Assembly (NCBI GenBank): GCA_963724765.1
Contig: CAVRVY010000001.1
Coordinates: forward strand, 96,001-160,000
Length of the DNA: 64,000 nucleotides
Direction: 5' to 3'
Source: an uncultured delta proteobacterium
GTDB lineage: Bacteria > Desulfobacterota > Binatia > Binatales > Binataceae
This document shows positions 14 through 14,603 of the stretch, piece by piece. The notes beneath the pieces are model-generated. The model worked only from the letters and a program-made list of their open reading frames with translations, did not search any database and had not been told where the DNA came from. Each line of letters opens with the position of its first letter. Within the stretch, counting starts at the first letter, position 1. The position numbers and the translations under genes were made by a program.

Positions 14-1321
14 ATGGACAGCGACGAGTTGGACATCGCGCAAGTTCGTGAGCTGCTCGACGCGCTCGGCGACAGCGGCCCGAGTGATCCGCGCTATCGC
101 CTCATTCGCGCGTGGGTGCTCGCGCACCGTCGCAAGGCGCGCGCACTCTGGCAGCGAGGCGATATCTGGTGGACGCGAATCTGGGTGCCGCGCGAGCACC
201 GCGAATGGCGCGAAAGCACCGGCATCAGAGTGTCGGATGATCCCAACGGGCGCAAAGCGATGATCGTGGCGCGGCAGCGCATGGTCGATGTCGATAAGGG
301 GAAACCCACGCCCGACGCTCAAACGACATACGCAGATTTGCGCGAACTGATCCTTCGCGACTATGAACTCAACGGCAAGAAGCGTAAAGCACTCCTCACC
401 CGCCTGCTTCACCTCGATCCCTACTTCCGCGATTACAAGGCCGCGCGCATCACTTCGGCCGTCTTTGATCGCTATGCTACTGAACGCCACAACGCGGGCG
501 CCGCCAACGGCAGCATCAACCGCGAGCGCGACGTACTCAATCGCATGTTCGTCCTGGGCGTGCGCGCGGGATTGAGTATCGTCGCGCCCTACTTTACGCG
601 ATTGAAGGAAGCGCCGCCTCATGCTGGGTTCTTTGAGGCTAAGGAATTCGCCGCCGTACTCGCGCACCTTCCCAATTATCTACAACCGCCGATGCAGACT
701 GCCTACCTGACCGGCTGGCGCCTAAATGAAGTGCTGACCCGCAAACCCGAGCACGTCGATCTCAACGCTGGCCCTGGTTGGCTACGACTCGATCCCGGTG
801 AAAGCAAGACCGGTAAGGCGCGTATGTTTCCTCTCGCCGGCGGTTTGCGCGATCTCGTCGTCGAGCAACTCCGCGTCAGCGCCGAGCGCGGATCACCGTG
901 GCTATTCCCATCGCGGTTGGCGCTGCTGGGCTACGATGACGGGCGTGCGCTCACGGCGAATGTGCGCTTTTATCGCGCCTGGCATGATGCGTGTGAAAAG
1001 GCCGGAGTGAAAGGACGTATTCCGCACGACTTTCGCCGCACCGCCTACCGGAACCTCTTACGCGCCGGAATCCCCAAGCCTATAGCGATGGCCTGGATCG
1101 GGCACGAGACGGATGCGATGGCGAAGCGCTACGCGATCATGGATGAGGGATTATTTGGCGAGTTTTCGACGCGCCTGACGAACGCCTATGGCGCGCTACC
1201 CATCACAGAGAACGCGATGGAGATTGCGCCGGAGGGTGTCGCGCTAGAGGGCGTCGCGAAGCTGCCCGAACTTGTCTGCCATGACGATGGGTTCCCATCC
1301 ACGTCCCTGATAGGGCGGTAG
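14..1321 (+). CDS. Tyrosine recombinase/integrase (paralog 1)
   Basis: AGGAGG RBS at 1-6; catalytic motifs TGWR, PHDFRR, GHET, KRY; shares WLRLDPGESK..RMFPL with 13194..14411. Confidence 0.93.
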   Translation: MDSDELDIAQVRELLDALGDSGPSDPRYRLIRAWVLAHRRKARALWQRGDIWWTRIWVPREHREWRESTGIRVSDDPNGRKAMIVARQRMVDVDKGKPTPDAQTTYADLRELILRDYELNGKKRKALLTRLLHLDPYFRDYKAARITSAVFDRYATERHNAGAANGSINRERDVLNRMFVLGVRAGLSIVAPYFTRLKEAPPHAGFFEAKEFAAVLAHLPNYLQPPMQTAYLTGWRLNEVLTRKPEHVDLNAGPGWLRLDPGESKTGKARMFPLAGGLRDLVVEQLRVSAERGSPWLFPSRLALLGYDDGRALTANVRFYRAWHDACEKAGVKGRIPHDFRRTAYRNLLRAGIPKPIAMAWIGHETDAMAKRYAIMDEGLFGEFSTRLTNAYGALPITENAMEIAPEGVALEGVAKLPELVCHDDGFPSTSLIGR

Positions 1322-3558: not shown

Positions 3559-4539
3559 CTAAGACGATGCGGTCTTCCTGCGCCGCCCACTTAGTATCTG
3601 CTGCTTACGGCGATTCGTGCACCTGTCCGAGCACGACCGTTGACTTGAATGGCGGGCATAAAAGTAACGTCCGCAGCGCGGGTTTCGGCACACCCGTATG
3701 CGCTGCAAACCCGCGTCGCCCAAGTCCTCGAAGATCATTTGCAGTGCCGCGTAAGCGTGATCGATCCAGCTTTCTCCCGGCCAGTCGGGCGCTTCGTCGT
3801 CTTCATCTTGTGTGACGCGATGCTCGTGGGCGGCTATGTGGATAGTCAGACCAATCCTGCGCAAGAAGCCATAGAGCTGCCAGGCGTCGGGTCTGTCGCT
3901 TGCGATGAACCATGCCAAGACCGGATGTTGGGGTCCGGCGTTGGGTTTTTCCGCCCGCGCTTTGAAAACTCTGAGCATGTCCGCGAATCCGACGCTTCGT
4001 GCGAAGTCCTCGTAAAACTGCGTGCGTTCGACGGCGCGCTCGGCGGTCTCGCAATCGGTCGGGCGATTATTCGCAACGTCGGAAGCAGACCAGCGGATTC
4101 CACGCTCACTCAATTCGGTTTTGACTCTAAGATAATTGCCCTCAAACGACGATAACCCATCGCGCCCGATCCAGTTTGCGGCTTCGATGAAAGCCTTGAG
4201 CGCCGCCAGCCGGTTGCGGCGCTGCGCTCCCGTAAGCGTAGTAAGCGCGTCGCCAGTTAGGCGTTCGTTTCTCTCGCGGGCGAGCTTGCGGATAAGCGAC
4301 TGGCTAAAGGGGCCACCAAACGCGTCGGGCCAGTGCAGGGCGATATAGGCCAGTCGGGTGATTGGTAATGGGATCGTGTCTTTTGCGGCGGCGCTCGCAA
4401 CCAGTCTCTCAAAGGCGTCGGGATCGTAGCTCGCCAATACCGCATCGCAGAAGTCCGTGGCGGCTTGGCTACCGGGTTCGAGGCTTTGTTGTTCGCTGAA
4501 GCTGGTAGTTGGGGTTGATTCGTGACGATTAGTCATCAT
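3559..4539 (-). CDS. CGNR zinc-finger domain protein
   Basis: C-terminal RIRVCRNPRCGRYF...RSCSDRCTNRRKQ motif. Confidence 0.8.
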   Translation of the reverse strand: MMTNRHESTPTTSFSEQQSLEPGSQAATDFCDAVLASYDPDAFERLVASAAAKDTIPLPITRLAYIALHWPDAFGGPFSQSLIRKLARERNERLTGDALTTLTGAQRRNRLAALKAFIEAANWIGRDGLSSFEGNYLRVKTELSERGIRWSASDVANNRPTDCETAERAVERTQFYEDFARSVGFADMLRVFKARAEKPNAGPQHPVLAWFIASDRPDAWQLYGFLRRIGLTIHIAAHEHRVTQDEDDEAPDWPGESWIDHAYAALQMIFEDLGDAGLQRIRVCRNPRCGRYFYARHSSQRSCSDRCTNRRKQQILSGRRRKTASS

Positions 4540-4621
4540 TGTCTACCAACTACAATATAGCATGAGAGGCAGTGAAATGCGCAGTACACGCGAGGTCGGC
4601 AACATCGATAAGGAGCATCAG

Positions 4622-4822
4622 ATGGGAGAGATTCTAGATACGAAACAAGCTGCGGTTTTCCTGGGTCTCCGCCCCGGCACGTTGGCGGTTTGGCGGATGG
4701 AAGGCCGTGGTCCGGGTTACGTGAAGCTCGGGAAGCGAGTTGTCTACCGGCGCGATGCGCTGGAGCGGTTCCAGGCGGCACACACGATCGACCCCGAACG
4801 CGACCCGCAGCATGCCGCCTAA
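4622..4822 (+). CDS. AlpA/excisionase-like HTH_17 protein
   Basis: AAGGAG RBS before ATG 4622; LDTKQAAVFLGLRPGTLAVWRMEGRGPGYVKLGKRVVYRR. Confidence 0.88.
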   Translation: MGEILDTKQAAVFLGLRPGTLAVWRMEGRGPGYVKLGKRVVYRRDALERFQAAHTIDPERDPQHAA

Positions 4823-5206: not shown

Positions 5207-5703
5207 GCACGACGAGCACGCCGACTATCGCGCGGCCATCCACATCGATCGCGATCGATGCTGAGTGGTTCGAGCGTCTCGGCCGCCGCTATTTCTACGC
5301 GCACCGCGCATTCCCGCAGACCATCGCGCGCAGCAACCGCCAAGTGTCACTCAAAGTAGCCGCGATTAACTTCGCGCACTTCCGCGACCAGGGCGGACCC
5401 AATCAAACCCCGTGTGACCGCTACGGCGTCGATGCTGAAGTGCCGGCGCTCTTTGAACGTGAATTCCTGCGCCGGGCGACGCCCTCATTGATTCTCGACA
5501 TGCTCGGTGAGATCGAAGCGCTGCACAATGTCGTTTTGGATTTGGACCCGGCTTTTTGCTGGGAACCCAATGTTCGCCGATTCATGAACAAGTTGCGGCG
5601 TCATCCAGATTGGACCGCCAGCCCGCGCGACGAAGAATGTGCACGAGACGAGAGCGCCGAGCGCGACGATAGGTTAACCGTGGGCGGCGACGCGCATGCT
5701 TAA
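5203..5703 (+). CDS. Phage-type protein with Ead/Ea22-like motif
   Basis: FLRRATPSLILDMLGEIEAL resembles the Ea22 motif FIAAANPxxVLALLDELE; overlaps both neighbours. Confidence 0.55.
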   Translation: MSTTSTPTIARPSTSIAIDAEWFERLGRRYFYAHRAFPQTIARSNRQVSLKVAAINFAHFRDQGGPNQTPCDRYGVDAEVPALFEREFLRRATPSLILDMLGEIEALHNVVLDLDPAFCWEPNVRRFMNKLRRHPDWTASPRDEECARDESAERDDRLTVGGDAHA

Positions 5704-6955
5704 CATCGACGCCGACTCGACCCCCGCGAAAATTGGTGCGCGTGATCGTAGGCTGCCATTGAGCGTATCGAGCGCCTACACCAAAGCCACACTGCGCGAC
5801 CTCGCCAAGTTCGAAGGCCGCACACTCGATCCCTCGATCGTCCGCCGCGCCGAATTGGCGCACGATCCCGCAGTGCGTGATGGCGGCGATCCTGCCGTGA
5901 AAGCCGATTTAACCGCGCCACCACGCGCGCAACTCGAATCAGCCTCACCGCCGCCAGCACCATCCGCCTTCTCATTTACGCCGCTGCGCGATCTTCTCGC
6001 CGAACAACCGCAACCAGAAAAATGGCTATGGGACGGGATACTGAGCGAAGGCGGCCTCTCGCTTTTGGCCGGTAAACCGAAAGCGGGCAAGTCAGTATTG
6101 GTTCGCAACTTGGCCATGTGCATCGCGCGCGGTATTCCATTCTGCAACCGCCCGACGCGCAAAGGCCGTGTTGTCTACTTAGCCTTCGAGGAGAGCCGCA
6201 ACGCCATCCGCCGCCACTTCGAGCTTATGAATGCGGACGGCAGCGAGGAGATCGTGATCCACGTCGGCCCGAAGTTCGGCAGCGACGCCGATGATCCCGG
6301 TCGCCTACTGCTCAACATCGTAAGTACCTATCGCCCGGCGCTTATAGCCATCGACACATTCGCCAAGTTGTTTCGCATCCGAGACATCAACAAAGATTAC
6401 ACCGCAGTCTCAAAAGCACTCGAAATCCCGATGCATATCGGACGCGAGGGCAAGACGCACATCCTACTCACGCATCACGCGGGTAAAGGTGAAAACACCG
6501 AGCCCATCGATCAGATCATCGGTACGACCGCACTCGCGGGCGCCGTCGATACGATCCTCATCCTCGATCGCAGCCGCAACCTTGGCGGCGACGCTTCCGT
6601 TCTTACGTCCATTCAGCGCTACGGCGATGAACCCGATCCGCTATCTCTGATCCTCGATGAACGGACGGAAATTTTCGCTCCCAACGCCACCGACGCCGCC
6701 CAGACGCGAACACGCGAGGACGCGAAGATCGCCGAGATCGCCGCCTTCATTCGCGGCCACGCCAACCGCGCCACCGAGACGGAAATCCGCCAGTCTATTT
6801 CGGGCCGCGTCGAAACAATCCGCCGCCTCCTACGCCAAGCGGTAGCAACCGGGCGCATTCTCACGTCGGGCGGTGCCAAGAAGGGCGATCCCACGCTCTA
6901 TCGCCTCCCTGACACCTCACAACCCGAAACGCGGGAACAGAATAGAGAAAAGTAA
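5696..6955 (+). CDS. AAA_25/RepA-type replicative helicase with probable C-terminal winged helix
   Basis: Walker A GKPKAGKS, YLAFEE, Walker B IAIDT, LTHHAGK, GTTALAGAVD. Confidence 0.88.
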   Translation: MLNIDADSTPAKIGARDRRLPLSVSSAYTKATLRDLAKFEGRTLDPSIVRRAELAHDPAVRDGGDPAVKADLTAPPRAQLESASPPPAPSAFSFTPLRDLLAEQPQPEKWLWDGILSEGGLSLLAGKPKAGKSVLVRNLAMCIARGIPFCNRPTRKGRVVYLAFEESRNAIRRHFELMNADGSEEIVIHVGPKFGSDADDPGRLLLNIVSTYRPALIAIDTFAKLFRIRDINKDYTAVSKALEIPMHIGREGKTHILLTHHAGKGENTEPIDQIIGTTALAGAVDTILILDRSRNLGGDASVLTSIQRYGDEPDPLSLILDERTEIFAPNATDAAQTRTREDAKIAEIAAFIRGHANRATETEIRQSISGRVETIRRLLRQAVATGRILTSGGAKKGDPTLYRLPDTSQPETREQNREK

Positions 6956-7538: not shown

Positions 7539-7961
7539 ATGCCCACATTTGAATTCAGCGACGATCACTATCGCGCGCTCAGCGACTTGCTGCTCGGCAT
7601 CCGCGACGCCCGCCTCGCGTGGCAAGCCGCCAAAGGCAAGGTAGAGGAATGGGACAGCTTCGCTAGTGAAATTCGGCGCGGCGAGCGCGCCGGTGCTCCG
7701 TTGCACACGCTGATCGACGAGGCCGCGTCCTGGGCGTCGGGCTGGTGGCGCAGGGCAAACGCGCGTCTCTCAGCGCGCCCTTCTTTACGAAGTAATACGT
7801 TAGTTAGTAGTGATAGACTATATAAGCATCGAGGTGGTAATCCCAACTTGTCGTCGGACACGACAGGTTCGCCAGCCACATTGCCCGATCTTGGCATAAC
7901 CCGCGACCAATGCGCCTCCGTGCGAGCAACCATGAGCCACGCGATAGTGAGCGATAGCTAA
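7539..7961 (+). CDS. Hypothetical phage-type protein
   Basis: GAGGAG RBS; contains RGG...TLPDLGITRDQ segment seen in phage proteins. Confidence 0.55.
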   Translation: MPTFEFSDDHYRALSDLLLGIRDARLAWQAAKGKVEEWDSFASEIRRGERAGAPLHTLIDEAASWASGWWRRANARLSARPSLRSNTLVSSDRLYKHRGGNPNLSSDTTGSPATLPDLGITRDQCASVRATMSHAIVSDS

Positions 7962-8314
7962 TGAGAATGCGTAAAGCTGGATCATCATCGCCTCGCCCAT
8001 CGCGCGCTCCGGGCATCAGTCGATTCGGACGCTCCGGGCTCGACTCGCCGTCGTTTCACACCGGGAAAGTTACGGTATTGAAAGCCGACGCCGACAAGCC
8101 TCATCGCTGCAAGCGCTGCAATCGCTCGCCGCTCATCGGATCGCGCTGCGCAAGCTGCGGTTACGATAATCGCGCGTGTCAACTCGCGCGCAATCATCGC
8201 CGTCATCACCCGCGCCAGCTCGACAATATCCTGGGCGATGACCTCGACAACGCCGATGCGGGTTTGTTGGGCGATCTTGAAGATGACGACGCTACCGACG
8301 AGGGCGAACAATAG
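7961..8314 (+). CDS. Small zinc-ribbon protein with acidic tail
   Basis: CKRC...CASC; C-terminus DLEDDDATDEGEQ. Confidence 0.55.
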   Translation: MRMRKAGSSSPRPSRAPGISRFGRSGLDSPSFHTGKVTVLKADADKPHRCKRCNRSPLIGSRCASCGYDNRACQLARNHRRHHPRQLDNILGDDLDNADAGLLGDLEDDDATDEGEQ

Positions 8315-8348: not shown

Positions 8349-10523
8349 ATGAGTGAAGGAATCGAAGTACGCATCAGCCCAAGTGCTGGCGCTGGCGGCA
8401 AGCGCCTTGCCGAGTCGCCGAGTTTTGCGTCCGACAAGCTCACCGGCACGCAGCAGCGATTCGCCGCGCCCGGCGCCGACGCACGCTCGCAGATCGCCGT
8501 CGAGCAGAAGCTCGTCGCCACGCAAACCGCGCTGGTCGCCGAGATCAAGTCGCTGCGCAAGGCCATGCAGGGCACCGCCGCCGGGTCGGCCGAGCGCACG
8601 GCGCTGAAGGCGCAGATCGACGAGCGCCTCGCGCAGCAAAAGAGCAACTTAAGCGGAGCCTACAACACAGGCGCGGTGGCGCGAGATGCAAAAGCGCTCA
8701 CCGCCGGCAAGGGCGTGGCGATGATGCCCTCCGCGCGCGTACTTGCTCAATCACTCGTCAGTGCCAGCCGCGAGACGCTCCAGGGCAATCCGCTCGGAGC
8801 GCTTAGGCATGCCGTCAGCGGTTTCAACGCCGGACGCTCTCTCGTTGGTGCCGGTGGAGGTGCCGCCGTAGCCGAGGGCGCCGAAGGTGCCGCCGAAGCA
8901 GCTGGAGGTGCCGGTATCGGCACGATGCTCGCCGCCGTCGGCGTCGCTGGCGCCGGCGCCCTGGCCTACAAGGCGTGGGAGGACCCGAACGCCGCCAAGG
9001 CCGTCCTCGGCGCGCCGCTCGCGATCATGGAGGCGAAAAAATATGGCCCGCTGGAGGAGTCGCGCCAGGGCGCCGGCTATCGTGCCGCGCGTGAATTCGG
9101 CGAGAGCGGGCAGTCGATGATCGGATCAACCACTGGCGGCCGTTGGAGTGCACTCGGCATATCGCCTAGCGACGCGACGCAAACGGTTTCGGCGATGCGC
9201 GAGTTGGGCGGCTCGAAGTACGTATCGAATCAAGAAGCATACGCGGGTGCAAAATTGGGTACGTATTTGGGATTTTCGCCCGAGCAAACCGCGCAAGTCG
9301 GCGGCGCGGCCGGGCGCCTCGGTGTCAGTCCCGAAACTGCGATCCGCACCATCGCCGCCGGTGTTGAGCGCGGCAACCAGCAAGGCCGCCAATTCGAGGT
9401 CGCATCGGCCAGTCTCGACTACCTCAAGCAGATCGCCACGTCGGCGGCCGTCAGCGGCACGACCGGTTTAACGGCGATCACGAACCTCACCTCGATATTG
9501 GCCAAAACGGGCATCGCGGCGTTCCAGGGCGCGGGCGGCGTCAGCGCCATCGGCGGCATCGAAGCCGCGCACTCAGCCGACGATATTTTCGGCGTCAAAG
9601 CCATGGGCGCCGCCTTTGCGCAATACGGCGAAGCTTCGATGCTCCGCGGCGCGCACGGCAACATTGCCAAAGCCGAGGAAATCCGCCAGGGCGGTTTCGG
9701 CGGACGCTTTTCGTCGATCTATGCGTCGTCGATCCATGGCGAGATCGCGATGGCGCGCAAGTTCGGCCCTCTCGGGTACGAAGCACTCGAAGAGCAGTGG
9801 GGCATGCCGATCGGTTCCTACATCGATCCGCGCACCGGCAAGCCCGTTAGCGTCAACAGCGCCCTCGACGATCTCGACCAGGCGATCCAAAGCGGCGACT
9901 ATCTGAAGGCCGCGAAGATCCAAAATAGTTTATTAGACAGCGGCTCGAAGAACATTTCACCGATGGCCGCCGCGAGTGCCGGCCTCGCTACGGGAGGCGC
10001 GCTCACCGGCGAAGCGACCCAGCGGACCTATGCCGCTGGTGCACGCCTCGAAACTGCCGGCTTGTCCCTGTTGCGCCGCCACCTCGACGACAAAGCGGGC
10101 GCCTCCGCGCTCGACTACTTATCGAGCACATTGGGTCCGTCGAAGCCGACGCCGGCGCCGGGTCTAGCCTACGTGCCCGAACCGCCGCTGCCGCCTGGCG
10201 GCCTTCCGACACCCCTGGCGACGCCTTTCGCGACCCCCGATGCGCTCCCGACGCCCGGCGCGCCCGCCTATGCCGCCCCAGCCGCAGGTGCCCCGATCGC
10301 GGGCGCGGGCGCGCTCAGCGGGTTAGGCGATAGGTTAGGCGATAGCGTCTCGGGCGGCGTGCTGCTGATCGCCGGATTGCTCGAACGCTTAATCGCCGCC
10401 GTGCAGGGCGGTAGTGCGCTCGGGGCACCATCGCCTGCGCCGACGCCCGCCGCGCCCGCGCCCACGCCCGCGCACGGCCCAATCGCGCCGACCGCCTCAA
10501 CCCCGAAATCGTCGCGCCACTAG
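8349..10523 (+). CDS. Tail tape-measure-like protein with Pro-rich C-terminal region
   Basis: 724 aa, Ala/Gly-rich helical; N-terminal coiled coil; hydrophobic segment near aa 190-225; LGISP/LGFSP/LGVSP helical repeats; GAGG RBS. Confidence 0.65.
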   Translation: MSEGIEVRISPSAGAGGKRLAESPSFASDKLTGTQQRFAAPGADARSQIAVEQKLVATQTALVAEIKSLRKAMQGTAAGSAERTALKAQIDERLAQQKSNLSGAYNTGAVARDAKALTAGKGVAMMPSARVLAQSLVSASRETLQGNPLGALRHAVSGFNAGRSLVGAGGGAAVAEGAEGAAEAAGGAGIGTMLAAVGVAGAGALAYKAWEDPNAAKAVLGAPLAIMEAKKYGPLEESRQGAGYRAAREFGESGQSMIGSTTGGRWSALGISPSDATQTVSAMRELGGSKYVSNQEAYAGAKLGTYLGFSPEQTAQVGGAAGRLGVSPETAIRTIAAGVERGNQQGRQFEVASASLDYLKQIATSAAVSGTTGLTAITNLTSILAKTGIAAFQGAGGVSAIGGIEAAHSADDIFGVKAMGAAFAQYGEASMLRGAHGNIAKAEEIRQGGFGGRFSSIYASSIHGEIAMARKFGPLGYEALEEQWGMPIGSYIDPRTGKPVSVNSALDDLDQAIQSGDYLKAAKIQNSLLDSGSKNISPMAAASAGLATGGALTGEATQRTYAAGARLETAGLSLLRRHLDDKAGASALDYLSSTLGPSKPTPAPGLAYVPEPPLPPGGLPTPLATPFATPDALPTPGAPAYAAPAAGAPIAGAGALSGLGDRLGDSVSGGVLLIAGLLERLIAAVQGGSALGAPSPAPTPAAPAPTPAHGPIAPTASTPKSSRH

Positions 10524-10595
10524 ATCGACGTGATTTCGTTGACGGCTTTTTTCCTAACGTAGCAGTCCCAAATTATAAGTCTGGATGAGGTTCAC

Positions 10596-10808
10596 ATGAG
10601 CGACAACTCACCCAAAGCTACGCCCTGGGCCAAGTACCGCGACGCGCGCATCGCCCATGCCCGCGAGCTGCAACAACTCGCCGCCGCCTATCGCGATGCG
10701 CCGCGCTGCGCGAAGTGTCAGATTGTGATTTCCTTGCGCCCCGACGAGGCGTGCTGCATCGCCGACTGCCCGCTGGCGCCATCCACGATGGACCGCAGCG
10801 CCCGATGA
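10596..10808 (+). CDS. Small Cys-rich hypothetical protein
   Basis: GAGG RBS; CAKC...CCIADC. Confidence 0.6.
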   Translation: MSDNSPKATPWAKYRDARIAHARELQQLAAAYRDAPRCAKCQIVISLRPDEACCIADCPLAPSTMDRSAR

Positions 10809-10967
10809 CTACTTGACTCGACTCGACTAGCTACTTACTCGGCGGGCTATTAGCGCATTAAAAAAAGGCCGAAGCTCAAACGGTAGAAATCGCTAAAAAT
10901 CTCCGTCTGGCTCCGGCCGGAGCAGCGACGATCTGACGCAAAAGATCGCGCTACCTATGACCGATAT

Positions 10968-11819
10968 TTATAAGGCGCGCCAAATCCTTCCCTGCTCCTC
11001 CCACTGGTTATAGGCGATCGTCGGAATGCCATAGCGCGCGCGCACGCTGGGTGCCACCTGCGCCAACGCGCGCATCGCAGCATCGAGGTTTACGCCGCCC
11101 AACCGCGTTTCCGTACCCGCCGCGTCGTAATTGAGCAGAATATTCGGATCGATCTGCTCGTCCATCATCGCGGCGTGCAAGCGGCTCTTGACGCTGTTAA
11201 AGCTTTTGAGCAACGCGAGCGGACTGAGACTACGGCCGCCGAAAGACTTCGACTGTGTATAGGCATCGCTGTCCATGCCCGGCCTCACCGTGCGCCGCGC
11301 AACTCGGTCGCCGCCGATCCGGCTTCGGCCCTCGCCTTGGCCCTCGCCGAGCTCCACTTCATCTTCATCAGTGGGCTCGACATATTTTTGGCGGTTGAAC
11401 GGCGTGATCTCGCTATCGGCGTGCGCACCAGGGAAGCGAATCTTCGAGGGACGGCCGCTAACCAACATTTCGTGAATCATGTCGGCGTCGGCCTCCAAGT
11501 AGTCGAAATCATCGTCGAGCGCCTGGATGCCCGCCCACTCGCGGTTGGACTCGCGAATATCCTTGCGTCGTGCTCCCTCTGCGCGTCGATCAAAGGCGTC
11601 GGCGTTCGCTTCCATGTAGTCTTTACTGTCGCTCATCTCGCGCACGCTTTGGCTACGGGCGCGCTTCGATTTCACGAGCGCATTGAGATCGTCAACAGCT
11701 TCGGCGAATGTCATTTGAACCTCATTGTGGGGAGTGGGAGTGACGCGGTAGAACCGGCCGTTGAGGAAGTCTCGTACGATGCCCGCGATCCTCATATTGG
11801 AAGTATAACGCTGTTCCAC
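10968..11819 (-). CDS. Hypothetical protein, divergent from the TerS-like gene
   Basis: 283-aa ORF with charged, protein-like composition; several KS/KSF motifs. Confidence 0.7.
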   Translation of the reverse strand: MEQRYTSNMRIAGIVRDFLNGRFYRVTPTPHNEVQMTFAEAVDDLNALVKSKRARSQSVREMSDSKDYMEANADAFDRRAEGARRKDIRESNREWAGIQALDDDFDYLEADADMIHEMLVSGRPSKIRFPGAHADSEITPFNRQKYVEPTDEDEVELGEGQGEGRSRIGGDRVARRTVRPGMDSDAYTQSKSFGGRSLSPLALLKSFNSVKSRLHAAMMDEQIDPNILLNYDAAGTETRLGGVNLDAAMRALAQVAPSVRARYGIPTIAYNQWEEQGRIWRAL

Positions 11820-11861
11820 AGTTAAATGCTATGCTCACGGCAGCGAGGCGAGCAGCGAAAA

Positions 11862-12305
11862 ATGGCCAACCCCAGCAATTTGATCCCGTTCCAGTTCAAA
11901 AAGGGCCAATCGGGCAATCCCAACGGCCGCCCCTCCGACCGCGACGCCGTCGCCCTCGCCATCAAATCGACCCGCGACGGCCTCGAACTGGTCGAGACGC
12001 TTGTCGATCTGATGCGTCACGCGAAGGCGGAAAAGACGCGGTTGGCCGCGACCTGCGAGTTGTGGGATCGCATCTATGGCCGCGTCCCGGCCGGCGAGCG
12101 CCCGTCGCTATTCGGCGCGCTCCAGGGCGTAACCGGGGTAACCTTCGCCGCCAGCTTCGGCCCGCGCCGGGGCGAAGTCGAAGCCAAGGACGCCGCTGTC
12201 GTAGAAGTTGCGGCCATCGTCGAAGCCGACTCCCATCGCGTCGATATGGACGCGCCTGACGACGCCGCAGACGACGCTGAGACACCCGAGACGCCCGTCG
12301 AATAG
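11862..12305 (+). CDS. DUF5681 / terminase small subunit-like protein
   Basis: NLIPFQFKKGQSGNPNGRP N-terminal motif; RLAATCELWDRIYGR helix. Confidence 0.72.
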   Translation: MANPSNLIPFQFKKGQSGNPNGRPSDRDAVALAIKSTRDGLELVETLVDLMRHAKAEKTRLAATCELWDRIYGRVPAGERPSLFGALQGVTGVTFAASFGPRRGEVEAKDAAVVEVAAIVEADSHRVDMDAPDDAADDAETPETPVE

Positions 12306-12485: not shown

Positions 12486-12887
12486 GTGCAAGTCTCGCCA
12501 CATCACAACGGCGCTCCGCTCGACGCGCCGCTCACCCGCGACTCGCCGACGCTATCGCTCGACGCGATCGCATCCGCGCCGTCGCCGACCGAGGCGTTGT
12601 CGCGGTTGTCGCCCGATGCGCTCGCGGTGCTGTCGGGCCGGTGCGCGACCATCCAGGCAGCGATCCAGCTCGCGATCATCACGCGCGCGGCCGCGCTAAC
12701 CGACCACGCCAACGCCAACGGTTCCGCGCGCATGCTTAGCGCCGATGAAGCCTGCGCCATCCTGAAACGCCCGAGGCGCTGGCTCTATGACCACGCGAAG
12801 CGCATGCCCTGGATCAAGCGCCTCAGCCGCAAGTCGCTTCTCGTCGATGAGTCGATGATGATGCGCTGGATCGCTTCCCGCCACTAG
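12486..12887 (+). CDS. Excisionase-like HTH protein
   Basis: C-terminal MLSADEACAILKRPRRWLY..RMPWIKRLSRKSLLV; upstream of xre-int. Confidence 0.72.
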   Translation: MQVSPHHNGAPLDAPLTRDSPTLSLDAIASAPSPTEALSRLSPDALAVLSGRCATIQAAIQLAIITRAAALTDHANANGSARMLSADEACAILKRPRRWLYDHAKRMPWIKRLSRKSLLVDESMMMRWIASRH

Positions 12888-12959: not shown

Positions 12960-13181
12960 ATGTCCGTTACCCATGATCGTGCGTCGGCCAAGCGTCCGCT
13001 GAAGACGCTCAACCAGCTACGCGAGCGCAAGGGGCTTACCCAAGACCAGCTCGCAGCCAAGGTCGGCGTGACGCGGGTATATATCACCCAGCTCGAAACG
13101 GGCGCTCGGGCGAACCCGTCAATCCCGGTGCTCAAGCGCTTGGCGCAGGCCCTCGGGGTCGCGCTCGACGATCTCGTTTAG
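12960..13181 (+). CDS. XRE-family HTH repressor
   Basis: LRERKGLTQDQLAAKVGVTRVYITQLETGARANPS. Confidence 0.93.
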   Translation: MSVTHDRASAKRPLKTLNQLRERKGLTQDQLAAKVGVTRVYITQLETGARANPSIPVLKRLAQALGVALDDLV

Positions 13182-13193
13182 GGGTAGAAAGCG

Positions 13194-14411
13194 ATGGAGA
13201 CGAAAGCGACTGACAGCAACGTGATCGACAGCAAGGCGACAGCGCAGGGGCAGGCGAAGGAGCGGCAGGCGAAGGGCAGGGCGCGCGGTCTAGGCGCCGT
13301 CTACCTGCGCGGCGGCACCTACTGGATCGCCTACCACCACAACGGCCGGCGCATCCGCGAATCCGCGCACTCGATCAAAGAATCCGACGCCGTGCGCCTC
13401 CTGAAGCGCCGCTACGCCGAAGCCCAGAGCGGCCGTCCGATCGGCCCGCAAATCGAGCGCACCGCGCTCAAATCTCTCACCGGGATGCTGCTCGACGACT
13501 ACCGCGCCAACTCGCGCCGCTCTCTGGATCGCGCCGAAGACGCGGTTACCCATCTCCACGGCTTCTTTGGCGAGGACCGGCGCGCAATCGGCATCACGGC
13601 CGATGCGATTGTCGCCTATCAGGCTCAGCGCCAGCGCGAATCGTGGAACAACCGGCCGGTCGCCGCCGCCACGATCAACTATGAGGTCGCGATGCTCCGG
13701 CGCGCCTTCCGTCTCGGCGCGCGCGCCGGCAAGGTCAGCGTGCGGCCGGAGTTTCCGATGCTCAACGTCGATAACGCCCGCAAAGGTTTCTTCGAGCCGG
13801 ACCAGCACCGTGCGGTGCTCGCGTACCTCCCGCATTACCTGCGCCCGGTTGTTCAAGCCGCTTACATCACGGGATGGAGAACGCAGAGCGAGCTATTGAC
13901 CCGGCAGTGGCGTCACGTCGATCTCGACGCCGGCTGGTTGCGCCTCGATCCCGGTGAGTCCAAGAACGGCGAGGGTCGGATGTTCCCGCTCACGCCCGAG
14001 TTGCGCGCGATCCTCCAGGCGCAGCGCGATCACGTCCGCACGATCGAGCGCGCAACCGAGAAGATCGTTCCCTGGGTGTTCCCGCACGACGACGGCTCGC
14101 CCATCCTCGATTTCCGCTATTCGTGGGCCAAGGCGTGCCGACTCGCGGGCGTGCCCGGACGACTCGTTCATGATTTCAGAAGGACCGCGGTGCGAAACTT
14201 GGAGAGGGCGGGCGTTCCTCGCTCAGCGGCGATGGCGATCACCGGCCACCGCACCGCGACCGTCTACCAACGCTATGCGATCGTCGATGAGGGGATGATG
14301 CGCGAGGCTGCCGACAAGCTGGCCATCCTCCACCGCGCCGGTGCCGAAGCGAGCGCTCCGAGCGCCACACCCAGCAACGGCCGCGTCCTACCGCTCACGA
14401 TCACGCGCTGA
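13194..14411 (+). CDS. Tyrosine integrase (paralog 2), tRNA-adjacent
   Basis: TGWR, HDFRR, GHRT, QRY motifs; N-terminal arm-binding-type region. Confidence 0.95.
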   Translation: METKATDSNVIDSKATAQGQAKERQAKGRARGLGAVYLRGGTYWIAYHHNGRRIRESAHSIKESDAVRLLKRRYAEAQSGRPIGPQIERTALKSLTGMLLDDYRANSRRSLDRAEDAVTHLHGFFGEDRRAIGITADAIVAYQAQRQRESWNNRPVAAATINYEVAMLRRAFRLGARAGKVSVRPEFPMLNVDNARKGFFEPDQHRAVLAYLPHYLRPVVQAAYITGWRTQSELLTRQWRHVDLDAGWLRLDPGESKNGEGRMFPLTPELRAILQAQRDHVRTIERATEKIVPWVFPHDDGSPILDFRYSWAKACRLAGVPGRLVHDFRRTAVRNLERAGVPRSAAMAITGHRTATVYQRYAIVDEGMMREAADKLAILHRAGAEASAPSATPSNGRVLPLTITR

Positions 14412-14437: not shown

Positions 14438-14458
14438 ACGCCACAATTACGCCACAAT
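14438..14458. repeat. Tandem ACGCCACAAT x2, probable integrase arm-type sites of the att junction
   Basis: Copies at 14438-14447 and 14449-14458, between integrase stop and tRNA 3' end. Confidence 0.6.
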
Positions 14459-14522: not shown

Positions 14523-14603
14523 TGCGAGAGGGGGGACTTGAACCCCCACGCCTTGCGGCACCGGATCCTAAGTCCGGCGCGTCTGCCATTCCGCCACTCT
14601 CGC
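14523..14603 (-). tRNA. tRNA-Leu (anticodon TAG), CCA not encoded
   Basis: Cloverleaf: GCGAGAG/CTCTCGC acceptor, CCGGA-CTTAGGA-TCCGG anticodon arm, long variable arm, GGGGG-TTCAAGT-CCCCC T arm. Confidence 0.97.

Follow-up and report, generated by a model that had tools for sequence, protein, structure and literature searches.

A chromosomal island at a tRNA-Leu gene of a soil bacterium encodes a putative, highly divergent tape-measure protein, possibly that of a phage satellite

Until 2025-26, phage satellites were thought to use the tails of their helper phages unchanged. Work on the PLEs (elements resembling phage-inducible chromosomal islands) of Vibrio cholerae, satellites that parasitize the myophage ICP1, then showed a satellite ruler protein inside the tail. 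As described in parts of that study, PLEs encode their own tape-measure protein (TMP), a chaperone, and the hub protein BhuB, and they form chimeric tails (PMC12987554). The same parts report that the PLE TMP excludes the TMP of the helper, that the tails are 10 nm shorter, and that deletion of the PLE tmp gene lowers transduction by 96 to 99.9% (PMC12987554). Putative tmp genes in PLE-like elements and in some phage-inducible chromosomal islands that form capsids (cf-PICIs) are indicated in the legend to Extended Data Fig. 10 of that work (PMC12987554). EPIP satellites of Mycolicibacterium are reported in a preprint to encode a TMP and to have altered tail length (PMC12822802). Here, we analyzed a 64,000-nucleotide stretch of DNA (the window; GenBank assembly GCA_963724765.1, contig CAVRVY010000001.1, positions 96,001 to 160,000) from the genome of an uncultured bacterium of the order Binatales (host genome, G000). 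The gene of interest is an open reading frame (ORF) within a 16.4-kb chromosomal island of this window. Its product, P0001, appears from remote sequence comparisons to contain the core of a TMP, and we propose that the island may be a phage satellite.

A likeness of P0001 to the TMP core of phage K- and SPO1-type Herelleviridae had been suggested in the first-pass annotation, and this likeness was recovered here both through an intermediate protein family and by fold search. The weakest significant relatives of P0001 among 1.84 billion sequences, P0024 (855 aa) and P0027 (670 aa), matched its residues 269 to 422 (E = 1e-6 and 1.3e-5, respectively), and both carry a C-terminal SLT domain (PF01464). 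Together with P0029 to P0032, these metagenome proteins form an SLT-bearing bridge family. BLASTP of P0001 against P0027 gave 29% identity over the core (E = 4e-13), and hhalign comparison of the P0001 family profile (A2) with the bridge family profile (A3) gave a probability of 97.8% (E = 1e-12) over P0001 residues 182 to 451.

The bridge family also matched phage TMPs. Four of five tested members hit phrog_13572 (E = 6.3e-11 to 7.8e-4), with the core of P0027 matching both this model (6.3e-11) and phrog_1047 (6.1e-7). When P0027 was searched with tblastn, one large phage, Exiguobacterium phage vB_EalM-132 (Herelleviridae), matched outside the SLT region (E = 3e-5). The matching 883-aa protein is encoded 3' of the sheath, the tube, and two chaperones, its record notes similarity to SPO1 gp11.2 and the CampHawk TMP, and it belongs to phrog_13572 at an E value of 1e-163. 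Its core (residues ~305 to 458) is common to 567 phage records, mostly of Staphylococcus and Bacillus myophages and often annotated as tape measure. Four further core-bearing phage genes all occupied the expected TMP place: in phages JL and Nigalana the gene directly follows tail assembly chaperones annotated as such, in KSAP11 it is itself annotated as the tape-measure protein, and in Goe24 it is unannotated and a TMP by position only. By hhalign, the bridge family profile aligned with a profile of five Herelleviridae TMPs (A4) at a probability of 97.5% (E = 5e-12). Direct alignment of the P0001 family with the same phage profile (E = 0.0015) placed P0001 residues 263 to 411 on residues 259 to 409 of the phage TMP, with the GRQxE motifs in register. 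A Yersinia phage TMP aligned with the bridge family at an E value of 0.025 (probability 1.9%) and not at all with the P0001 family, a result on which we base no conclusion. The profile comparisons show that the core of P0001 is related to the Herelleviridae TMP core by remote homology, confined to a single domain and traced in two steps.

Structure prediction was consistent with this assignment. A whole-protein AlphaFold2 (AF2) model of P0001 was helical throughout but too poor for fold searching (predicted local distance difference test [pLDDT] of 43.8); in its N-terminal part, only residues 45 to 116 reached a pLDDT of 59 to 80. A model of residues 251 to 536, built from 18 sequences, reached a pLDDT of 76 and consisted of helical hairpin repeats. 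Searching BFVD with this core model by Foldseek returned the TMP of Staphylococcus phage phiSA_BS1 as the top row (E = 4.8e-4), and 24 of the 27 named rows among the top 50 were tape-measure, minor-tail, or tail-lysin proteins (the other 23 rows were unnamed). The nearest ESM Atlas clusters to P0001 were viral or PF10145 TMP clusters, with PF10145 as feature neighbors at 0.91 to 0.92; we treat this TMP-like neighborhood as a lead only.

The general build of P0001 likewise fits a TMP: the protein is long and mostly helical (28 helices) and bears hydrophobic segments. As initially described, it is a 724-aa Ala/Gly-rich helical protein (Ala 19.5%, Gly 14.0%) encoded on the forward strand. Its ATG start is preceded at ~9 nt by a Shine-Dalgarno-like AGGTGAGG and is supported by the full-length homologues, whose alignments with P0001 begin at residues 1 to 4. 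The core holds the GRQFE and QGAGGVSAIGGIE motifs and most of the invariant columns of the family; IAAGVERGNQQGRQFE corresponds to residues 335 to 350 and ILAKTGIAAFQGAGGVSAIGGIE to residues 383 to 405. A hydrophobic segment at residues 181 to 209 lies at the same place in the homologues P0004 and P0008, and one at residues 195 to 215 of the Exiguobacterium phage TMP stands just before its core. The P0001 segment at 181 to 209 and a second one at ~664 to 691 are conserved in homologues. The Pro/Ala-rich tail of about 130 residues reported earlier is indeed present (Pro 22%, Ala 21%, and Gly 14% in the final 129 residues), but it does not directly follow the quoted motif segment: ~190 residues separate the two, and the second hydrophobic helix (nt 10338 to 10421) interrupts the tail. 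The C-terminal end, ...TASTPKxxRH, is common to the homologues P0004 and P0007. No muralytic or other Pfam domain was detected in P0001 (E ≤ 0.01), in agreement with the earlier remark that a C-terminal muralytic domain is absent. The rise of an alpha helix is ~0.15 nm per residue, so that 724 residues, if all helical, would span ~109 nm; given the folded core and the Pro-rich tail, this length is a loose upper guide only.

The P0001 family is rare. HMMER recovered 25 relatives at E ≤ 0.001 among 1.84 billion representatives, 11 of them at E ≤ 1e-30, and a collection of 5.8 billion clusters yielded 7 proteins at E ≤ 0.001, one of which is a truncated call of the same gene. Full-length members measure 724 to 770 aa, and intact homologues occur in metagenomes. 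Among genomes, the family was found in 2 of 165 of the host's order (its own included) and in 1 of 401 sampled from the host's class, namely its own. These 25 relatives, and another two copies elsewhere in the host genome, show the reading frame to be more than a chance one. P0001 had no direct match in Pfam, PHROG, NCBIfam, or PDB sequences, and relatives of its family were absent from the 50,697 phage records, IMG/VR, genome contigs, and metagenome contigs searched. The present analysis gives this rare family, for which no assignment existed before, a TMP-like annotation.

We then considered the genetic setting of this gene (Table 1). The island is bounded by 51-bp repeats of tRNA-Leu, which define its length of 16.4 kb; the left repeat (attL) lies 1.8 kb to the left of the window, and no third copy of the repeat occurs inside the island. 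Pieces nearly identical to the island turned up at low depth in soil metagenomes (four runs, three studies). None of the island ORFs scanned matched a family of capsid, portal, large terminase, tube, sheath, or baseplate proteins, with the caveat that divergent genes could escape the libraries. The description of the TMP-like gene as an orphan holds for this island, in which searches for further tail genes, and for genes of the head or packaging motor, found none. Nor was the canonical setting of a TMP recognized: no chaperone pair (G/GT frameshift) was found 5' of the gene, and the window has no tail gene, such as one for the tail tip or baseplate, 3' of it.

Table 1. Features of P0001 and of the island that encodes it (window coordinates unless a contig is given)
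Feature	Position	Strand	Basis or remark
TMP-like gene (P0001)	8349..10523	+	ATG start, 724 aa
Long N-terminal helices, coiled-coil-like	residues 45-116, 8481..8696	+	AF2 H45-74, H81-116
Gly/Ala-rich hydrophobic segment	residues ~181-209, 8889..8975	+	Kyte-Doolittle windows > 1.2
Putative TMP-type core, helical hairpin repeats	residues ~263-415, 9135..9593	+	hhalign, core model, Foldseek
Pro/Ala-rich C-terminal tail	residues 596-724, 10134..10523	+	composition, hydropathy
attL, copy of 51-bp repeat	G000:C1:94190-94240		exact match to attR
Second tyrosine integrase	14..1321	+	PF00589 E 4.2e-18; between attL and attR
326-aa protein, weak C-terminal CGNR zinc finger	3559-4539	-	E 1.1e-4, below cutoff
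AlpA/excisionase-type regulator	4562..4822	+	phrog_66 E 1.1e-7; 87% identical copy in island C
AAA_25 (RepA/helicase-like) replication protein	5696..6955	+	PF13481 E 3.3e-29; phrog_906 E 1.9e-24
Conserved 140-aa ORF	7539..7961	+	retained in each of the three islands
Conserved zinc-ribbon ORF (CxxC...CxxC) directly 5' of TMP-like gene	7961..8314	+	invariant Cys pairs, three copies
Small conserved ORF 3' of TMP-like gene	10596..10808	+	homologues in both sister islands
Conserved 283-aa ORF	10968..11819	-	both sister islands have copies of 45-53% identity
DUF5681 protein, candidate small terminase	11826..12305	+	PF18932 29.8 bits vs cutoff 27.5
Excisionase-like HTH_17 protein	12486..12887	+	PF12728 E 2.7e-4, below cutoff
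Cro/CI-type HTH regulator (HTH_3)	12960..13181	+	PF01381 E 8.7e-19
Tyrosine integrase adjoining attR	13194..14411	+	PF00589 E 6.1e-13
attR, 3' 51 nt of tRNA-Leu(tag)	14523-14573	-	51-bp exact direct repeat
tRNA-Leu(tag)	14523-14603	-	ARAGORN

The same genome contains two sister islands, B and C, that are syntenic with the window island, so that three syntenic islands occupy two different tRNA-Leu genes. Island DNA is 67 to 88% identical in patches (blastn), and the TMP-like copies are 32 to 33% identical as proteins (tblastn). Island B (19.0 kb; within G000:C1:975000-994999, locus L015) lies at tRNA-Leu(caa) with a repeat of ~58 bp and carries an intact TMP-like gene of 770 aa. In island C (L016, G000:C3:682000-701999), the TMP-like copy is split into three frames (9855-11921), and in a second genome, G152, contig L017 carries an integrase, an Xis-like gene, and a TMP-like gene split into two frames (9469-11662); these splits could reflect decay or assembly error. 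AAA_25 proteins are present in both sister islands, and the HTH_17 Xis-like gene recurs, conserved, in these islands as well as in G152.

Island B supplies a second phage-like feature. Directly 3' of its TMP-like gene lies a gene for a 562-aa protein, P0033, whose N-terminus matches phrog_1015, "tail protein with lysin activity" (E = 1.6e-14). P0033 also matched a virion-associated protein of Yersinia myophage fHe-Yen8-01 (BLASTP E = 3e-14), which is encoded directly 3' of a 929-aa protein in the TMP position, and, weakly, the gene that follows the Exiguobacterium phage TMP (E = 0.001). Because P0033 matches genes that follow the TMP in myophages, a neighboring pair of genes retains its phage tail order in island B; the window island has only the first of the two.

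Two genes upstream of the TMP-like gene had been put forward as possible tail assembly chaperones, and neither matched one. The product of the 140-aa ORF is a helical protein with no match in Pfam, PHROG, NCBIfam, or PDB, and the adjoining ORF, which encodes a zinc ribbon with invariant Cys pairs, has none in Pfam, PHROG, or NCBIfam. In island B, moreover, a 272-aa ORF separates the counterparts of these two ORFs. The lack of a chaperone match, the zinc ribbon, and this separation of the two genes leave the chaperone idea unsupported.

The DUF5681 protein of the island is a candidate small terminase. Over 70 aa it shares 40% identity with the product of gene 370 from Acetobacter phage phiAX1, itself a DUF5681 gene directly 5' of a Terminase_6N gene and the portal, and each of the two other DUF5681 genes of the host genome lies directly 5' of a Terminase_6N ORF. 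These results support DUF5681 as a small-terminase-type domain. For the island protein, the PF18932 match spans the N-terminal motif only, and it is just this motif that it shares with the other two DUF5681 proteins of the genome; the assignment as a small terminase is therefore reasonable but not proven. The two DUF5681-Terminase_6N pairs of the host (G000:C3:122544-124639 and 142722-144741) lie ~18 kb apart, face away from each other, and may be resident prophages or remnants and possible helpers. In all, the genome gave four Terminase_6N matches and one sheath match. The latter, a contractile-sheath gene (PF04984, E = 2.3e-16) on contig C2, stands in a same-strand run of ORFs (G000:C2:232467-249050) that includes an adjoining 190-aa ORF and a 900-aa ORF; this locus could encode the tail of a prophage, or else a tailocin or contractile injection system.

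Further features of the islands were noted. The two integrases of the window island are 40% identical and lie within one att pair, and an Xis-like ORF precedes the left integrase; the same ORF is found in island B, which has no integrase at that place. The window island may be composite, or the product of a fusion. Just inside both island ends (G000:C1:94359 and 110439; window 14439-14456) there is a direct repeat of 18 nt, CGCCACAATTACGCCACA, which may be an integrase arm-type site. The 326-aa protein is encoded divergently from the AlpA-like gene, has a 64% identical copy in island C, and is likely an island regulator. No Pfam or PHROG family matched the small ORF 3' of the TMP-like gene, and the 283-aa ORF had no match in Pfam, PHROGs, or phage records and no usable match in the ESM Atlas. 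The left arm of island B (L015, 6087-7009 and 2941-5199) carries a HigB toxin gene (PF09907, E = 1.7e-28) whose adjoining gene is HigA-like by eye, three zinc-ribbon membrane ORFs, and a weak SprT/ImmA-like metallopeptidase match; this cargo is missing from the window island.

With moderate confidence, we favor the reading that P0001 is the divergent TMP of a phage satellite and substitutes for the helper TMP in tails built from helper parts. Satellite lifestyle, incorporation into virions, and any influence on the helper or on the length of its tails are what we infer. Under this model, the island, integrated in tRNA-Leu, would integrate, excise, regulate itself, and replicate with its own genes, which include a small-terminase-like protein. 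During growth of a helper myophage in the cell, helper capsids would take up the island, and tails that otherwise consist of helper parts would incorporate the satellite TMP. There it would set the inner core and length of the tail and supply channel-forming and ejection functions, as has been demonstrated for the PLE TMPs, to date the one proven case. The helper is likely a contractile-tailed phage. In favor of this reading stand the homology, fold, and architecture of P0001, the post-TMP gene of island B, the satellite-like island, the absence of a plasmid match, and the precedent of PLEs.

Several observations weigh against this reading. Direct comparison of the P0001 family with the phage TMPs by hhalign gave a probability of just 16.9%, and direct BLASTP of P0001 against the phage TMP gave an E value of 0.18, though in the same register. 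HMMER profiles and phmmer failed to reach the Herelleviridae TMPs from the P0001 family, PHROG scans with 12 family members gave no match to a TMP model (0 of 12, phrog_13572 and phrog_1047 included), and P0001 matched neither PF10145 (PhageMin_Tail) in Pfam (E ≤ 0.01) nor TIGR01760 (TP901 core) in NCBIfam (E ≤ 0.1). Because of these weak direct comparisons, the gap in the HMMER searches, and the missing PHROG matches, we describe the relationship as remote homology of one domain and not as family membership. Models made of helical repeats are prone to match other proteins rich in helices, and a single Foldseek BFVD row fell below an E value of 0.001. When the PDB was searched by fold with the core model, nothing but designed helical repeats and helical domains of a generic kind came back, and the P0001 family profile retrieved only designed repeat proteins from the PDB, so the fold by itself is generic. 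At the level of the locus, no tail assembly chaperone was found in the island, and only island B, not the window island, has a post-TMP gene. The genome revealed no helper, with no match to PF10145, HK97 capsid, or PF04860 portal, and held no copy of the TMP-like family beyond the three islands and no other copy of the post-TMP gene. Searches of the phage records and IMG/VR yielded no phage and no viral contig related to it. Evidence of excision or packaging was likewise lacking: contigs from the soil runs gave only joints with short sides (21 to 22 nt), which we do not trust as a sign of excision. Finally, two of the four genomic TMP-like copies seen (island C and G152) are frame-split; the TMP-like gene can therefore decay.

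Unlikely, in our estimation, is the alternative that the TMP-like protein is a decoy, which would enter or block helper tail assembly, or block entry of an incoming phage genome at the membrane, and so protect the host population instead of building tails for the satellite. The homology and context that suggest substitution would suit a decoy equally, and the lack of a chaperone and, in the window island, of a hub partner might be expected if productive assembly were unneeded. Helper tail assembly is a known target of satellites, the PLE11 protein Rta acting on the TMP of ICP1; however, this known interference protein, as described in the same parts of the study, is an 80-aa protein and not a TMP (PMC12987554). 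The P0001 family, in contrast, has kept a full TMP-like length of 724 to 770 aa with conserved N and C termini, and island B retains a post-TMP tail gene alongside, which argues for building rather than blocking.

Still less probable is that the gene is a relic of a decayed prophage tail module with no present role. The split copies in island C (three frames) and G152 (two frames), the two integrases and cargo-like genes of the island, and the failure to find a helper are all consistent with such decay. However, the three islands share a compact gene order despite the divergence of their DNA and of their TMP-like proteins, two copies hold intact frames of 724 and 770 aa whose invariant residues are concentrated in the core, the att repeats of 51 and ~58 bp are intact, and intact full-length homologues in metagenomes and near-identical island DNA in the soil runs point the same way. 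Given this gene content, the intact att sites, and three diverged syntenic copies, a satellite fits better than a decayed prophage. Least probable of all is that P0001 is a nonvirion membrane or envelope protein of an integrative mobilizable element, acting for example in DNA transfer or surface exclusion and resembling a TMP in its helical repeat only: its two hydrophobic segments, its Pro-rich tail, and the remoteness and generic fold of the TMP similarity would suit such a role, but P0001 had no match in 72,556 plasmid records (the bridge protein matched plasmids through its SLT domain only, and its core not at all), general family scans of the island ORFs showed no relaxase, coupling protein, or type IV secretion system gene, phage TMPs were the only outside relatives of the core, and island B pairs the TMP-like gene with a myophage tail gene.

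If the window island likewise puts its own TMP into tails, the strategy described for PLEs is also used by a second, unrelated lineage of satellites, found in a soil bacterium and equipped with a TMP too divergent for standard models to recognize. The islands would also offer a compact natural series (TMP only, TMP plus hub, and broken TMP) in which to study what parts of the tail a satellite has to encode itself. More speculatively, and as a tentative suggestion that we consider doubtful at present, the islands might represent a new soil-bacterial satellite lineage with a variable "tail-core kit," consisting of the TMP alone in the window island and of the TMP plus a post-TMP hub-like protein in its sister, with a core type otherwise found only in Herelleviridae myophages of Firmicutes. 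Such a kit would imply that the host group harbors helper myophages of a clade still to be discovered, whose tail cores are of the SPO1/K type, and it would mean that satellites shed tail genes stepwise and keep the ruler.

Compared with the Herelleviridae TMPs of phrog_13572 (SPO1 and CampHawk) and phrog_1047 (phage K and Twort), P0001 shares a core of ~150 residues with G-R-x-x-E and Q-G-x-x-G motifs, placed equally far from the N terminus, a hydrophobic segment just before it, and a helical build throughout. In contrast, P0001 matches neither PHROG model, is shorter (724 aa versus 883 to 1270 aa), ends in a Pro/Ala-rich stretch with no glucosaminidase or other lytic domain, and is not preceded by sheath, tube, or chaperone genes. 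The closest outside relatives, the SLT-bearing bridge proteins, resemble P0001 over the core but carry a C-terminal lytic transglycosylase (PF01464) that P0001 lacks.

Among satellites, the window island shares with PICIs and Staphylococcus aureus pathogenicity islands (SaPIs) an integrase, an AlpA-type regulator, its own replication protein, and a small-terminase-like gene, together with the lack of a large terminase. It differs in having no recognized capsid-size redirection genes and in its TMP-like gene, for which PICIs are not known apart from the putative tmp of some cf-PICIs (Extended Data Fig. 10 legend, PMC12987554). EPIP elements are reported to have a serine integrase and head-tail connector, scaffold, and capsid genes (PMC12822802), whereas the window island has tyrosine integrases and none of these. 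The nearest parallel, judged by its published description, is the PLE tail cluster, which likewise belongs to an integrated satellite that has its own TMP but no tube, sheath, or capsid genes. The likeness is closest in island B, which also has a counterpart of the myophage gene located directly after the TMP; the helper would probably be contractile-tailed, and chimeric tails would be expected. The differences are that no chaperone was found here, that the window island has a TMP-like gene only, that it carries a small-terminase-like DUF5681 gene, and that it is known from its genes alone. A satellite with its own TMP is already known, from PLEs, as a kind of system; what would be new here is a satellite lineage with an unusually divergent TMP.

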